Below, piece by piece: positions 13,744-64,000 of a stretch of DNA of 64,000 nt. Numbering within the stretch: the stretch's first letter is position 1; the number at the start of each line of letters is the position of its first letter. The notes below the pieces were generated by a model. The model made no database searches, had not been told where the DNA came from, and worked only from the letters and a program-made list of their open reading frames with translations. A program made the position numbers and the translations under genes. This DNA comes from Octopus vulgaris. Taxonomy: Eukaryota. The stretch is from NCBI GenBank assembly GCA_951406725.2, contig OX597818.1, forward strand, positions 8,680,001 through 8,744,000. Reading direction: 5' to 3'.

Positions 13744-13903
13744 GTGTGTGTGATTGTGTATAGAAGAATATATTAATAAAGAATTCCAACCTTGTCTGAT
13801 TTTCACGTTTTATTTACAATCTTATAATGATATATTATAAGATAATATATTATAATTGAGTAAAATAAAATGAAATAGTAGAATGTTAAATATTCATTCT
13901 GAT

Positions 13904-13947
13904 TGAACTAGTACTTTCATGCATTGAATTCTGCAACTTCGGGTTCA
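13904..13947 (-). ncRNA. Minimal type I hammerhead-like motif in Penelope terminal repeat (mirror copy ~16153-16191, + strand)
   Basis: TGAAC-CCGAAG(T/A)-TGCA gaattcaa TGCA T-GAAA-GTAC-TA-GTTCA: stem I, core, stem II, palindromic stem III. Confidence 0.6.
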
Positions 13948-14418
13948 TGTAGTAGTGTTGACAGTCATGCTTCACAATTTTTGACTGTAGCAAGATGAGT
14001 GATTCTTGCTATAAATACAGTGGTAGGCTCCAGAGTGCTAGGTTTTGCAAACTGTATTCTGACCAATCAGTGTGTGTATCACTCAATTACTTAAGCTGAT
14101 TGGTTGGTTGAGCTGATTGGTTTTATTTTATCAAGAGTCGTATCTTGACCCTGGCCGAAGCAGCAATTGTTGGGTTATTTTTAGAAATGTTGTAAATATC
14201 CTTTGTCAGAGATTTTTATATTTTTATATTTCAATTGTCATCATCATCATTGTCAGCACCTTAATTATTGTTGCTAGTGGTGATGGTGGTGGCAATAGAA
14301 CTTTTAACCCTAAATAAGATAATTTTCCTGCTATCTTCGTCTTGATCACCTTTAGTATTGTTGTTGTTGTTAGTGGTCATGGTCGTAGCAGTGGAAGTAA
14401 TACCTCTAAGTATTATTA

Positions 14419-15326
14419 TTATTGCTTATTTAGCTTGGGTTCGAATTTATCAATAAAATTCTTTTCTCTGATTTTCCTCTCGATTTCACTTGGGCTGTGT
14501 AATTTGTAGAATGGAAATATTATATATATTTTCCGACCACATGTTGCTAGGTGGTTACTCAAAGGTATCTGACGGACCTCTGGGTCTCTAATCTGTTGCC
14601 GGTGTACACGTGAGCGTTCTAATAGTGCGTTTCCCGTCTGACCTACATATATTTCTTCACAATTTGGGCATTTGATGCAGTAAATTAAATTTCTGCTTTT
14701 GCAGTTCATATTCGCGTTTGTGAATATTTTCCCGGTTTTGTGTTTATATATTGACCGGTATGTATGAATTGGCATGTGCCACATCGGCTATCATTGCATT
14801 TAGATACCGTGAATGTTTGGTCTTTGTTGCTGAGGTCAAATTTTGCCTTTGTTAGTAATGTTTTCAAGTTTTTAGGCTGTCTTTTACTAAGCACCATAGC
14901 TCGATCCTTGATTATGTCTTTTAATTCATTACTTTGGGCAATGATTGGTAGGTTTGCTTTGGCAATGTTGAAGATATTCTGGTGACATGGGTTGTGTGTC
15001 ACTATGAATGGTATGACTTGTTCTTGTTTTCCTCTTCCTTGGGTTGTCCTAAGTTGTTGTATAGGTATTTTTATAGCCCGCTGTATGCCATTTTCTATAA
15101 GTAGAGATGGGTATTTTTGTTTGAGCAAAAATTCTCTTAGTTCTATTAGGCGTTTGTTCCTGATATTTGCATCTTCTACAATAGTACAAATTCTTCTGGC
15201 TAGGCAGTATGGGATGTTACGTTTTGTATGTGGTGGATGGCACGACTTAAAATTTAGGTATTGATGTGTGTCTGTGTGTTTATAGTATATATCTGTGGTG
15301 ATGGTGGTGTCATTTTTAATTACCAT
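14419..15326 (-). pseudogene. Penelope RT thumb plus GIY-YIG endonuclease (one 1-bp frameshift at ~14737)
   Basis: Two overlapping ORFs; the inverted copy has the extra A that restores frame. Confidence 0.85.
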
Positions 15327-16317
15327 TATATCCAGGAATATTTAATTACCATTCATACATACCGGTCAATATATAAACACAAAAACCGGGAAAATATTCA
15401 CAAACGCGAATATGAACTGCAAAAGCAGAAATTTAATTTACTGCATCAAATGCCCAACCGGCAGACGGAAACGCACTATTACGTGTACACCGGCAACAGA
15501 TTAGAGACCCAGAGGTCCGTCAGATACCTTTGAGTAACCACCTAGCAACATGTGGTCGGAAAATATATATAATATTTCCATTCTACAAATTACACAGCCC
15601 AAGTGAAATCGAGAGGAAAATCAGAGAAAAGAATTTTATTGATAAATTCGAACCCAAGCTAAATAAGCAATAATAATAATACTTAGAGGTATTACTTCCA
15701 CTGCTACGACCATGACCACTAACAACAACAACAATACTAAAGGTGATCAAGACGAAGATAGCAGGAAAATTATCTTATTTAGGGTTAAAAGTTCTATTGC
15801 CACCACCATCACCACTAGCAACAATAATTAAGGTGCTGACAATGATGATGATGACAATTGAAATATAAAAATATAAAAATCTCTGACAAAGGATATTTAC
15901 AACATTTCTAAAAATAACCCAACAATTGCTGCTTCGGCCAGGGTCAAGATACAGGACTCTTGACCTGTCCAACAAAGCGTGATGCCTAAACCAATCAGCT
16001 CAACCAACCAATCAGCTTAAGTAATTGAGTGATACTACACACTGATTGGTCAGAATACAGTTTGCAAAACCTAGCACTCTGAGCCTACCCAGCTGTATTT
16101 ATAGCACAGAATCACTCATCTTGCTATCAAAAATATGATCAACACTACTACATGAACCCGAAGATGCAGAATTCAATGCATAGTACTATCAATCAGAATG
16201 AATATTTAACATTCTACTATTTCATTTTATTTTACTCAATTATAATATATTATCTTATAATATATCATTATAAGATTGTAAATAAAACGTGAAAATCAGA
16301 CAAGGTTGGAATTTTTA

Positions 16318-21902: not shown

Positions 21903-22311
21903 CTCTTACTCTTTACTCTTTTACTTGTTTCAGTCATTTGACTGCGGCCATGCTGGAGCACCGCCTTTACTCGAGCAAATCGACCCCGGAACTTATTCTT
22001 TGTAAGCCCAGTACTTATTCTATCGGTCTCTTTTGCCGAACCGCTAAGTGACGGGGACGTAAACACACCACCATCGGTTGTCAGGCAATGCTAGGGGGAC
22101 AAACACAGACACACAAACACACACACACATACATATATATATATACATATATACGACAGGCTTCTTTCAGTTTCCGTCTATCAAATCCACTCACAAGGCA
22201 TTGGTCGGCCCGGGGCTATAGCAGAGGACACTTGCCCAAGATGCCACGCAGTGGGACTGAACCTGGAACCATGTGGTTGGTTAGCAAGCTACTTACCACA
22301 CAGCCACTCCT
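21903..22311 (-). mobile_element. tRNA-derived SINE, family A
   Basis: Aligns along its length with 20292-20694. Confidence 0.9.
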
Positions 22312-59726: not shown

Positions 59727-59755
59727 AGGAGTGGCTGCATTGTAAGTAGCTTGCT
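59727..59755 (+). mobile_element. 5' piece (A-box region) of an interrupted family A SINE
   Basis: AGGAGTGGCTGCATTGTAAGTAGCTTGCT matches the start of family A; the continuation is at 63618. Confidence 0.8.
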
Positions 59756-61996
59756 AATAGGTTGCTTCAACGCATGTGCAAGTCAATGTGGTTTTGATAC
59801 CGAAGATTGAAGACGTGTTTTTGAAAACCGTCTTAACTTGAAGACTTTTGAATACTCAGCCGTAAGGTAAGAATTTTGGGGGTCTAGTGGGGACCTGTTG
59901 TATGTTGCAAATTATTTTTACAAGCAAGAAGTCCTCACTAGACTCTGGTCTACCTGAGGCTGAGTGAAAATATTCACTTAATTGTGAAAATTATTGGCTT
60001 GGTGGGCGTATCCTGCCAAACTTTCGTTTGAAAATAGTGTTAACCCTTTTGGATTACCTTTTGGACCAATTTTTGTGGAAGTTGTGTTCCAGTTGCGGCG
60101 TTCCAGGTTCAACTCAGGCCGGGAGTACCGTAGGGCCAGAAGATTTTTGCTGTGTTTTGCTGTTTATTGACTTTCTTTTGAACTTTATTTAACTCCCCTA
60201 TCTGTTTTTTTTTTGTTTATTGTGACTCTCCGTTGATTTCTTCCCTTCTGTTGTGCTTTCTCCCTTTTGTATCTTCCCTATTTTTTTCAAAAAATCTATC
60301 GAATTTTATTTGGACTTTTGAACTTTTTTCTTCTCGCTTTTTAAGTCTATTTTGAATATATTAAAAAAAAAACATGGCAATGAAAAATGACAAAATTTTG
60401 GAATGGGAGATTATACCGCCTAAAAAGTGGTTAAAAGACAGTGAAGATAGGACAGTGGTGTTGAGAACCTACTCCAAGGCACTCGACACCATCACCCTAT
60501 TCGAAAAGACGGCAATTGAAAAGGAGCTGGCAGAGTATTTGCCAACAATTAAATTCATTTCCAAGGGTGTCAGATATGCAACGGTGTGGTTGCTATTTGA
60601 CACTCGTGAAGAGGCTTGCAAATTTTCTTGTAAACCCCTACAGGGTAAGGAAATTTTATTTCTGCCCACGTACCATGGAAAGAGACTGATGAAAGCTTGG
60701 AACTGCGGGCTGCCATCCGGAATAAAACCCGAGTGGATAGAGAAGACTAGCCGCCGGGGTCTGGGTAGCAGCGGAACTAAGCTTCTTAATGTGAAAGTTC
60801 TTCCTGCGGCTGTTTGGGTTGGGTCAAAAGCAATTTTGACCCTTTGGACCCAATCAGCCAATCTGGTTCTTCCAGATTTTTGAAAATGGCCGGGTGCAGG
60901 TACCCGGTGATACTTGAGGGTCGCCCCCCTAGGTGTCATCGGTGCTTGGAGTCCGGCCATATAAAGAAAAACTGTCCCCGGGAACAAAATAGAATCCCGA
61001 AGCAGTTAAGTGAAATCCCTGTAGAAGAGGGAATGAAGACGGCCGAGGAAGCGGAGGACTCCTCAAACAGAGGCTGAAAGAGGAAGGTGAGCAACAATGG
61101 GTGCTCACCAAAGGATACTAGGGATGAGGAGAGAAAGGCGAATCTTCCGGCCACGGAGGAGGCACACCCTCCCTCAGCTGAAAAGAAAAAAAGAAAAAGA
61201 GGAAGAGAAACGGGACATTGCCGGCAGTCGGTGACATAGTACCGGAATGTCCCGGAACTACGTCGGTTGGGGTTGTGCCACCGACAGGAGAAGAAACACC
61301 ATTGGCGGGAACTGTGCCGCCAACGAAAGAATTGAATATCCCGCCCCCGAGGAAAAACGATGTATTGATCCTCTTCCATAGAGGCGGAGAAATTGAAAAG
61401 GTGATGGAAAAGTACCATAAGGGAGCACCTTTAGCCTTCACACAGAGTCCTGTGGTAGCTGTGGAGGCCGTGGCATTCGACGTGACGCTTGGGCTGAAGG
61501 AGCTCAATGAGGATTATAGCTTGGTCCCGGGCGACGCTAACACGGAACTCGATTACATTCTGAGGGAGGCGTGGTGGATGACGGAGGGTGCGGGCACAAG
61601 TTGTTTTGAGGACGAGTCATAAATTGTGATACGACTTGGGGGGCCCCAACCTAGAGCTGGCGCGTTCCTAAGGGAAGTGTAAGCCAGGTCAGGGAGGAGG
61701 GGCTTTGTGTATTGTATTTATATCATATGTAATTATTGAACTATGTCGTTGTTAGTAATAGACTGTTAAGTCCAAAAATTGAGAAGTTGTAAAAATTGTA
61801 AGAGGTTTAATACCTTGTTTGTGTTTGTTTTTAAAAGAACAATGTTTTAGAGAAACAGAAGTCGGCGGGCGCTTTTTGTCTTCTCCCATCCCCATCATCT
61901 TTCTTTCATTATCATTCATTTCATTAATGTCCTCGTCCAGCCCGCAAAGCTAACTTACTCTATGTACTGCCTTTATGGCAAATGTTATGAAATAAA
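59756..61996 (+). mobile_element. ORF1-only non-autonomous L1/Tx1-like retroelement, copy 1
   Basis: ~620 bp 5'UTR, ORF1 60374-61622, ~370 bp 3'UTR ending AATAAA, flanked by AAGTAGCTTGCT / AAGTAGCTTCCT. Confidence 0.8.
60374..61622 (+). pseudogene. Gag-like ORF1 (RRM-like region + CCHC zinc knuckle + low-complexity tail); two frameshifts and one stop
   Basis: Three ORF pieces 60374-60883, 60814-61077, 61218-61622; ATVWLLFDTREEA; GRPPRCHRCLESGHIKKNCP (CX2CX4HX4C). Confidence 0.8.
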
Positions 61997-62009
61997 GTAG
62001 CTTCCTTAC

Positions 62010-63619
62010 TACTATGTTGTTGACGCGTTTATTCTGCGCTGAGAAAATAACGTCATTCGACGTTGAAATTGAACATTTGAAGTATGACCACAGGTAAGGC
62101 TATTGTTTTTTGGAAGCTTAGTGAGCTCCATTGTCCGTATTGTTAATTATTTTTTCTAACAAGGGTCTCCACTGGATTCCAGAGATTTGTTTGCCAGTGG
62201 TCGTACTAAAAGATTCACTTTTTAGTAAAAATTGTGTGTTTTCGGGAGGAGAGTCCCTCCCAAAATTTATGATTTTATGTGACTGTGTGCACTTTGTGGA
62301 TTTTACCATTTCGAGTTCAACCAGAATTGGAGGAATTTCTGGCTGCTATTTTTGTGCTCCAAGGGATGTTTAACTGTGATACAAAGGATTACCAGAGTTC
62401 AATTTTGTTGTCATTTGAACGTTTGTTGTCTTCCTTCGTCCTTTTTTCTCTTGTCTGTCTTTCCGCTCTTTTTTGTGTTAGCATTAGAGACTTTTATTTG
62501 AACATTTTTGATTTTGTTGTGGACTTTTATATTATAGTTTATTTTAATAATATCAACCAAATGTAAGAAAACCTTCTAGTGGCAAATTGTGGCCTCCAAA
62601 CAGTGACTAAAAAACTATGATGAGAGAATGGTGGTGTTGCAGACCTATTGCAAGGTCCGCGACACCATCTGTGTATTCTCTCAGACTGAAATTGAAGTAG
62701 AGTCGGCGGGCTTACAGCCAACTTATAAGTTCATTCTTAGCAGTGCAAAGTACGCAATGGTGTGCGTGCTTTTCGACACACCTACGGTGGCTTAGAAATT
62801 TGCGAGCCAACATATAGCCAACATATATACCGTCGCCCGGTATAGAGGCTGTATGGATAGAAGATTCTCTTCGTCGAGGAATGGGTGGTAGCCCTGTCAG
62901 GTTCTCGAATGTAAAAATACTGCCTGCAGACGATTGGGTCGGGTCAAAAGCAATTTTAACCCTGTGGGTTCAATAGGCCGAAGATCTGGTTTTACCATAT
63001 TTCTTGATAATGGCCGGTTCCAGGCACCCAGTGATGATTGAAGGATGCCCCCCCCCACCAAGAGTCACCTGTGCCTGGAATCAGGACACATGAAGAAGAA
63101 CTGTTGCCGGAACCTGGCAAAGGTCCAGGAACAGTTGATTAATGATAACTGTAATCCTCCTGGTCCCCAACAGAGCCCCCTGCTACTTCACTGGTGGCTA
63201 CATTGGTACTGGAAAGAAAAGATTTTTCCCACAGGTCCAGATCCTTCCCAAAGGAGGACTAGAGATTACTTTTTTTGGCTCCGATTGGTGGTTGCAGGAA
63301 TACCTGCAGGCTGCAAAAGAGTTAATTGAGGGAGTAATGTAAGAGGTTTATCGCCTCCATATATATGTGTAGAAATTTTGGTTTCTTTGTGATGGACTTC
63401 TAGTCCAACTTTCTGTATATATTTGTAAGAGGTTTAATACCTCTCAATATGTTGTTTTTAACGAATATTGTTTTAGAGAAGCAGAGGTTCGGCGGGCGCT
63501 TTCTGTCTTCTCCTATCTTTATCATCTTGTATTATTATCATTCGCCTCATTAATGTCTTGTCCAGCCCGCAAAGCTACATATCTGCGTACTGCTTTTATG
63601 GCAAATGATATAAAATAAA
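62010..63619 (+). mobile_element. ORF1-only element, copy 2 (diverged, internally deleted)
   Basis: ORF1 remnants colinear with copy 1 (VVLQTY, WVGSKAILTLW, CLESGHMKKNC); 3'UTR 63420-63619 aligns with 61795-61996; ends AATAAA. Confidence 0.8.
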
Positions 63620-64000
63620 GTAGTTTGCTTACGAACTACATTGTTCCGGGTTCAGTCCACCGCGTAGAAACTTGGACAAGTGTCTTCTATCATAGCCTCG
63701 GGCTGACCAAAGACTTCTGAGTGGATTTGGTCGAAGGAAACTGAAAGAATTCCGTCGTATATATATATGTATATATATGTATGTGTGTATATGTTTGTGT
63801 GTCTGTGTTTTTCCTTCAACATCACTTGACAACCGATGCTGGTGTGTTTACGTTCCCGTAAGTTAGCGGTTCGACAAAGCGACCTATAGAATCAGTACTA
63901 GGTTTACAAAGAATAAGTCCTCGGGTCGATTTGCTCGACTAAAGACGGTGCTGCAGCATGGCAACAGTCAAATAACTGAAACAAGTAAAAGGGTAAGAGT
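63618..64000 (+). mobile_element. Remainder of the interrupted family A SINE
   Basis: AAGTAGTTTGCTTACGAACTACATTGTTCCGGGTTCAGTCC then the full family A body through the GTAAAAG tail. Confidence 0.9.

Follow-up and report, generated by a model that had tools for sequence, protein, structure and literature searches.

We analysed a 64-kb stretch of the Octopus vulgaris genome (the window; positions 8,680,001-8,744,000 of contig OX597818.1, in an assembly of 2.8 Gb in 227 contigs), near the end of which a short interspersed element (SINE) is interrupted between its A and B boxes by two retroposons that carry only open reading frame 1 (ORF1) of a long interspersed element (LINE). The target sequence occurs at three positions, 59744, 61995 and 63618, exactly as a preliminary description of this DNA had reported from the letters alone, and the insert from the first target copy (T1) to the third (T3) measures 3.86 kb. 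The same description had a family A SINE split between its boxes over this distance, which is borne out by comparison with an uninterrupted reference copy in the window (21908-22311, minus strand): the SINE head (59727-59757) matches it at 28 of 31 bases, and the SINE remainder (63618-64000) is 84% identical to it over 383 nt. The host SINE terminates a few bases beyond the end of the window, where its continuation is seen in locus L061. The features of the locus are:

59727..59758, plus strand: host SINE head, 5′ piece, with an A-box-like motif at 59732-59742 and T1
59744..59758, plus strand: target copy T1, its boundary fixed by the 5′ junctions of relatives
59759..61994, plus strand: copy 1, an ORF1-only retroposon of subfamily A (2.24 kb), ~94% identical to dispersed relatives and placed by the ORF1 tree
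59759..60373, plus strand: 5′ untranslated region (UTR) of copy 1, its first ~285 nt a module common to subfamilies B and D (88-91% identity)
60374..61622, plus strand: broken ORF1 of copy 1, spread over three frames, with stops
61969..61994, plus strand: 3′ terminus of copy 1, a hairpin (61969-61979; 3-bp stem, 5-nt loop) and an A-rich end, common to the autonomous helper LINE described below
61995..62009, plus strand: target copy T2, separating copy 1 from copy 2
62010..63617, plus strand: copy 2, an ORF1-only retroposon of subfamily E (1.61 kb), its 3′ part ~90% identical to its nearest relatives, placed by the ORF1 tree
62580..63137, plus strand: ORF1 remnant of copy 2, 35% identical to P0001 (an ORF1 of the ORF1-only clade), with four stops in the aligned part
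63592..63617, plus strand: 3′ hairpin and A-rich end of copy 2
63618..64000, plus strand: T3 (63618-63632) and the remaining host SINE, with a B-box-like motif at 63649-63658

In both copies the element starts after the 15th target base, hence the placing of T1 at 59744-59758. When relatives were compared, the final three bases of the 5′ copy of the target frequently went with the element and not with the host SINE, so the target repeat is not a pure target-site duplication. Identity between copies 1 and 2 is 61% in the ORF1 region and rises to 76% in the final ~290 nt; the relatives of copy 1 are the 40 best of 2195 candidates scored. Copy 2 is the more decayed and is internally deleted, and at 1.6 kb it is shorter than its full-length relatives (about 2.0-2.3 kb); ORF1-only units span about 2.0-2.6 kb from SINE head to tail. 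Between the targets there was no ORF2 remnant: a tblastn search with the helper ORF2 returned one 19-aa match (E 0.78), in the SINE tail. The two inserts are thus diverged relatives of which neither has a reverse transcriptase (RT) or endonuclease, as first described. Because copy 2 has the lower identity to its nearest relatives (~90% versus ~94%), it is likely to be the older; on this comparison it would have inserted first, and copy 1 would later have entered its 5′ junction.

Across the genome, 257 of 267 exact copy-1-type 3′ ends were followed by the first five target bases in a pattern count, and the first 30 of these ends by position all continued into the SINE, with both SINE subfamilies represented. 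The preliminary description had proposed sequence-specific insertion at one position, and suggested tabulating the 3′ flanks genome-wide; the flanks proved non-random and the specificity is confirmed. Its wording of the target as SINE or tRNA heads needs narrowing, since all 30 sampled targets were SINEs and no true tRNA gene was among those 30. When loci were ranked by similarity, the SINE resumed exactly at the target after 26 of 29 ends in the copy-1 family and 21 of 29 in the copy-2 family, and on the 5′ side the junction carried the target in 27 of 29 loci scored by eye. As a control, 30 loci of related L1/Tx1-type families were examined: none of their 27 locatable 3′ ends ran into the SINE, and one control-family end lay 4 nt before a target copy within an array. 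Exact empty sites (matches to a 32-nt SINE head pattern) numbered 54,990 versus 570 exact occupied 3′ junctions, both counts being lower bounds, which gives an occupancy of about 1% of exact sites.

The SINE is abundant, with three uninterrupted heads in the window and about one site per 20-50 kb, and local duplication does happen in arrays (at locus L290, 322 nt at 97%). One might therefore picture both insertions as chance events in a common repeat, or copy 2 as a local tandem duplicate of copy 1. Neither has any appreciable probability: at such a site density 257 of 267 ends at one position cannot be chance, and two copies with 61% identity in ORF1, each with its own dispersed subfamily, are not duplicates of one another.

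The host SINE is ~400 nt long, non-coding and of very high copy number, with a simple-repeat tail. In its head, A- and B-box-like motifs are spaced as in a transfer RNA (tRNA); of 35 tRNA sequences from this genome, which represent few isotypes, tRNA-Lys gives the best alignment (z 5.6 relative to shuffled sequences), and ARAGORN at relaxed settings folds the head as a tRNA. ARAGORN reported no tRNA in the window, and Rfam gave no tRNA match for the SINE head at E<=10, only chance microsatellite matches. The insertion point falls within the stretch that aligns to the tRNA anticodon arm.

An autonomous LINE that shares both the 3′ end and the target, predicted in the preliminary description, was found through an array neighbour. 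An initial search with the zf-RVT domain had returned many L1/Tx1-type families that do not use the SINE site; the lead was an ORF2-bearing element upstream of one copy-1 relative and ending at the same target. Full-length copies of this helper, with ORF1 and ORF2, occupy 5.5-5.9 kb between SINE head and tail. The copy at L195 has an uninterrupted 1133-aa ORF2 in which the apurinic/apyrimidinic endonuclease (APE; PF03372), RT (PF00078) and zf-RVT (PF13966) domains all score over cut-off. The expected catalytic motifs are present in the helper ORF2, and its best match in the PDB is human L1 ORF2p (E 8e-66). Among the 30 best relatives of the helper, 23 run into the SINE and five more into the target followed by another element; target preference (28 of 30 ends) is thus above the >20% of flanks in one repeat that has been used as a criterion (PMC4494074).

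In a tree of this genome's elements and unnamed or hypothetical homologues, 12 SINE-site RTs formed one branch (Shimodaira-Hasegawa-like approximate likelihood ratio test, SH-aLRT, 99) that lies within a set of non-targeting families from this genome, which suggests that SINE-site specificity arose once within this RT radiation. The protein database searches returned no named Tx1 reference, and the elements are called 'L1/Tx1-type' here; among named RT homologues, the closest comes from the octopod Argonauta hians. A second helper subfamily (L328, L341, L350, L363) has an ORF2 ~91% identical to P0002, the ORF2 of the first, with only 52-59% identity in ORF1 and 70% in the 3′ UTR. By this comparison, helper ORF1 and UTRs appear to turn over faster than ORF2, or to have been exchanged. 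A more divergent SINE-site RT (L362) is 76% identical in ORF2, and its ORF1 is mostly deleted.

The 5′ junctions bear on a different account of the fixed position, in which SINE head, ORF1 unit and tail move together as a composite and the position reflects descent from a chimeric master. That 5′ target-like bases often follow the element would fit such a unit, as would the 13 of 44 pairs in which position 12 differs between the two target copies, 5′ and 3′ (two of the 44 rows being neighbouring intact SINEs taken in by the script). Off-target copies, moreover, often begin with the first two or three target bases, and the RNA may carry a few of them. Against this, in 13 of the 16 helper copies inspected the SINE head runs straight into the element at differing internal positions, with junctions that range from a 13-nt duplication to partial loss of the SINE head; such varied 5′ truncation points to target-primed reverse transcription (TPRT) into a pre-existing SINE and excludes a composite unit. 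The 3′ target letter, in turn, goes with the subfamily of the host SINE (A with T71 in 9 of 9), and the downstream flanks place one element subfamily in both SINE subfamilies. Arrays mix unrelated subfamilies within a single head and tail, and two different ORF1 lineages and the helper occupy the same site. We therefore regard the composite as very improbable. The element RNA likely starts with a few target-like bases of its own, which would account for the difference of T1 from the other two target copies in the window.

Upstream regions are also exchanged among the ORF1-only elements. At least three 5′ modules, unrelated to one another and 280-450 nt long, occur in front of the subfamily-A body, and other subfamilies have two of these as well. 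One subfamily-A copy opens with 37 nt of the helper 5′ end, the only 5′ UTR stretch in common with the helper. At L290, a stretch of 322 nt in an A body matches the 5′ end of the next element in the array at 97% identity, the altered target copy of that element included; this single case suggests that 5′ modules are captured within arrays.

Helper and ORF1-only elements have their last ~40 nt in common, including a hairpin with a 3-bp stem and a 5-nt loop. They also occur together: one SINE on contig C2 holds an ORF1-only element, an intact helper and a further ORF1-only element in a row (L284, L195, L285). Other arrays consist of two or three ORF1-only elements of different subfamilies with a single SINE head and tail. 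In a census of 70 of the 570 occupied sites, drawn from the first 100 listed by position, a script counted 46 ORF1-only elements, 16 helpers and eight short or other; hand correction, which moved five rows, gave 51, 15 and four. The ORF1-only family has amplified on its own, with 267 exact 3′ ends of one subfamily type. We infer from the shared site, the shared 3′ end and the co-occurrence in arrays that the ORF1-only elements are passengers mobilised in trans by the helper. The same SINE site is also used by a second ORF1-only lineage, a 1.47-kb element (L281:4364-5830, minus strand; G000:C14, ~29.19 Mb) with the same 3′ end and a different ORF1 (26% identical to P0001).

Intact passenger ORF1s are 416-418 aa long and full-length in three subfamilies. 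The first 190 residues gave a structure model with a mean predicted local distance difference test (pLDDT) score of 82.6, in which two domains match RNA recognition motifs (RRMs) at Z 6.4-8.0 with no standout match. Because Z values in this range are common, they count towards the fold only in combination with the secondary-structure pattern and with neighbours in a protein language model, which include ZCCHC3-type RNA-binding clusters (at 0.90). One CCHC knuckle lies C-terminal to the two predicted RRMs; in copy 1 it falls at about 60931-60978 (PF00098, E 0.002, under the curated cut-off). The passenger ORF1 is therefore predicted to consist of two RRMs and a CCHC zinc knuckle, so that of the 'gag-like ORF1 with a CCHC knuckle' first described the knuckle is retained and the gag-like character is replaced by RRM-RRM-CCHC. 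A sequence search of the PDB with the ORF1 profile found zinc knuckles only and no match to L1 ORF1p. The protein database yielded only two ORF1 matches, the nearest named homologue being an Octopus sinensis protein at 74%. Contigs from four sequencing runs covered 25-30 of 30 bins of the element; since two of these runs are DNA-sized and labelled as other organisms, this coverage shows the presence of the family and not its transcription.

P0001 is homologous to the ORF1s of autonomous elements with APE and RT, which it matches at 26-35% identity (best E 8e-29). In a quick ORF1 tree of 82 rows, the 56 ORF1-only rows fell on one side of a branch with SH-aLRT 100, apart from all sampled autonomous ORF1s. 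This distance indicates that the helper we found is not the direct parent of the ORF1-only clade. It also leaves room for another origin, in which the passengers are deletion derivatives of an unsampled or recently extinct autonomous family that had the same ORF1 clade and mobilised them, as for TRE5-A.2 of Dictyostelium. No autonomous ORF1 in our sample comes near the clade, so that its parent is missing; only part of the genome's copies were read, and one more divergent SINE-site RT, with ORF1 mostly deleted, is present at L362. However, when 40 loci taken by position were read 6.5 kb upstream and counted by hand, none of the 24 ORF1-only-clade copies had an ORF2 between ORF1 and the 3′ end, in line with the ORF1-only structure first described and with the check it proposed. 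The full-length autonomous copies sampled (L328, L341, L350, L363) carry the other ORF1 type, and ORF2 is lacking throughout at least five subfamilies separated by synonymous distances (dS) of about 1-2.4, a pattern in favour of a single ancient loss of ORF2. We consider this origin unlikely, though less so than the composite unit.

Taken together, it is very probable that the two inserts in the window are decayed copies of ORF1-only L1/Tx1-type retroposons fixed at the SINE-head site, likely inserted by the endonuclease and RT of the full-length helper. The element would be transcribed from its own 5′ UTR and make an ORF1p that coats its RNA, and helper ORF2p would bind the shared 3′ hairpin. 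At the left target edge, ORF2p would then nick the bottom strand, and it would reverse-transcribe the RNA in place (TPRT). Second-strand joining 13-15 nt downstream, aided by the target-like 5′ bases of the RNA, would restore the target on both sides, and because both new junctions could be hit again, arrays would build up. Each insertion separates the A and B boxes of the SINE, and would presumably abolish its transcription by RNA polymerase III (Pol III). The SINE would serve as a harmless and very abundant landing pad, and with about 1% of exact sites occupied the effect on the host is probably small.

Several points weigh against this account or limit the evidence for it. The target is absent at six of 29 copy-2-family and two of 29 copy-1-family ends, and some of the similarity-ranked loci (L009/L012/L013; L025-L028) are near-duplicate segments and not independent insertions. 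Of 45 ends, 44 have a fully paired hairpin stem and four show a two-sided change, but these ends were picked by a hairpin-like pattern, so the count leans toward pairing. The ORF1-only clade is 28-31% identical to the helper ORF1 and 35% to that of a non-targeting family; in Dictyostelium, a foreign ORF1 with 25% identity failed to support TRE5-A transposition (PMC3159450). The ratio of nonsynonymous to synonymous substitution (dN/dS) was 0.10-0.26 between the five ORF1 subfamilies and 0.26-0.69 within them. The former values indicate purifying selection on ORF1 as the lineage diversified in the absence of ORF2, but they come with dS of 1.0-2.4, near saturation, and the procedure dropped windows below 33% identity and saturated pairs (142 of 176 kept for A-B), lowering dN.

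Among the targets of Tx1-clade LINEs are multicopy RNA genes, microsatellites, and DNA or long terminal repeat (LTR) transposons (PMC4494074; PMC3706591). Examples are Tx1 in Tx1D, Keno in U2 small nuclear RNA (snRNA) genes and Tx1-Mar in Mariner-N4_AMi (PMC4494074), and Mutsu in 5S ribosomal RNA genes and Dewa in a tRNA spacer (PMC3706591). SINEU passengers ride with Tx1-Mar into Mariner-N4_AMi, often in tandem, and SINEU-3 tandems sandwich a copy of the target (PMC4494074). The octopus system resembles these in its APE-type helper, in a fixed target within a multicopy sequence that can itself be a mobile element, in passengers that share the target, and in tandems. It differs in that the target is a SINE head, between the A and B boxes, and in that the passengers are protein-coding ORF1 elements of 1.5-2.6 kb and not snRNA-derived SINEs.

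Three other systems carry ORF1 only. HAL1 is a non-autonomous mammalian L1 derivative that encodes only ORF1p and arose more than once (PMC5753468). The octopus passengers are likewise L1-type derivatives with ORF1p only and more than one origin (the second ORF1 lineage at L281), and their 5′ UTR replacement recalls that of L1. They differ in being site-specific, which HAL1 is not described as being in PMC5753468, and in their invertebrate host. The ORF1 of mammalian L1 is of the coiled coil-RRM-C-terminal domain type, unlike the predicted RRM-RRM-CCHC protein with no sequence match to L1 ORF1p in the PDB. Descent from a mammalian L1, as for HAL1 proper, is contradicted by the nearest named homologues, which are octopod proteins. 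TRE5-A.2 of Dictyostelium is ORF1-only, site-directed and mobilised in trans by the ORF2 of the full-length element, for which it needs a short structured 3′ end; it arose directly from its helper by deletion and kept the helper's ORF1, and contact with TFIIIB brings it to sites about 50 bp upstream of tRNA genes (PMC3159450). The octopus elements share the ORF1-only and site-directed character, the structured 3′ end and a target linked to a Pol III gene, with mobilisation in trans again the probable route. In contrast, they enter a fixed sequence inside the SINE promoter region, their ORF1 shares 28-31% identity with that of the helper and branches apart from it, and their 5′ UTR is common to the helper for only 37 nt in one copy. 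Among Drosophila telomeric retrotransposons, about 40% of families carry ORF1 only, including HeT-A (PMC13534243). There too, ORF1-only LINE lineages exist beside autonomous partners in a shared niche and in head-to-tail arrays; unlike HeT-A, which belongs to the Jockey clade and sits at chromosome ends with no internal sequence target, the octopus elements form dispersed arrays of one to three or more inside SINEs. In its mode of action the octopus element resembles TRE5-A.2 or HeT-A, and in its build HAL1, but it belongs to none of the three.

A recent annotation of Octopus vulgaris repeats lists 13 recently active L1-Tx1 families (PMC13282606); a term search of its main text did not find 'target', 'nested', 'ORF1' or 'non-autonomous'. 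The literature searched, with subscription journals, Repbase and Dfam outside its scope, described no LINE that has a SINE head as its specific target. The earlier suggestion that the combination is undescribed therefore stands for the SINE target, and not for site-directed ORF1-only LINEs, which HeT-A and TRE5-A.2 already represent.

With these observations, the list of targets known for sequence-specific LINEs gains a SINE head, and one retroposon is seen to serve another mobile element as a safe harbour that is renewable. They also offer a clean system for asking why half-LINEs keep ORF1, as the passenger ORF1 is far from the helper's and yet conserved. Because intact passenger and helper copies both exist, cis preference and ORF1-ORF2 compatibility are directly testable, and sister families in the same genome without specificity make it possible to map the acquisition of a 14-nt target by an APE endonuclease. 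In annotation, loci of this kind are liable to be mislabelled as SINE fragments plus an unknown repeat, or as uncharacterised genes (one is the named Octopus sinensis protein). A wider reading, which we offer tentatively and rate somewhat below an even chance, is a three-tier chain of parasites in octopus genomes, of a kind not described before: the SINE, a LINE that recognises a 14-nt site in the SINE promoter region, and an old ORF1-only radiation that outnumbers the LINE by ~3:1. Here the passengers' own, unrelated ORF1p would have been selected to win helper ORF2p, and arrays would be the place where 5′ promoter modules are swapped.

Further observations concern related elements elsewhere in the genome. 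L009, L012 and L013 (C28) and L025-L028 (C31, C39) have identical insertions and flanks, lying ~20 kb apart or on small contigs; these are segmental or tandem duplications that carry the element. At L291 (G000:C7:13473000-13480000), a member of a non-targeting autonomous family ends 4 nt before the target and heads an ORF1-only array, in which a third ORF1 type follows. L282 (G000:C19:67429000-67436000) holds two ORF1-only units ~1.77 kb apart, upstream of the autonomous element L127, and L283 (G000:C12:42855500-42862500) a 497-aa ORF upstream of the autonomous L134, both outside the SINE. These units belong to other L1/Tx1-type lineages, and ORF1-only derivatives may be common in this genome. 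Five zf-RVT matches ~5.4 kb apart at G000:C2:73046133-73068136, three with 1140-aa open frames, form a tandem array of an autonomous L1/Tx1-type family. The 3′ ends of the non-SINE-targeting families at L100, L105, L107 and L119 adjoin one and the same repeat at nearby positions, which is possibly another preferred target.

Within the window, the output of a repeat finder run over its whole length was dominated by microsatellites. A perfect 472-nt inverted repeat (14140-14611 and 15481-15952, with 869 nt between the arms) is nested in a second pair (13779-13906 and 16189-16316), and is possibly a young DNA transposon.

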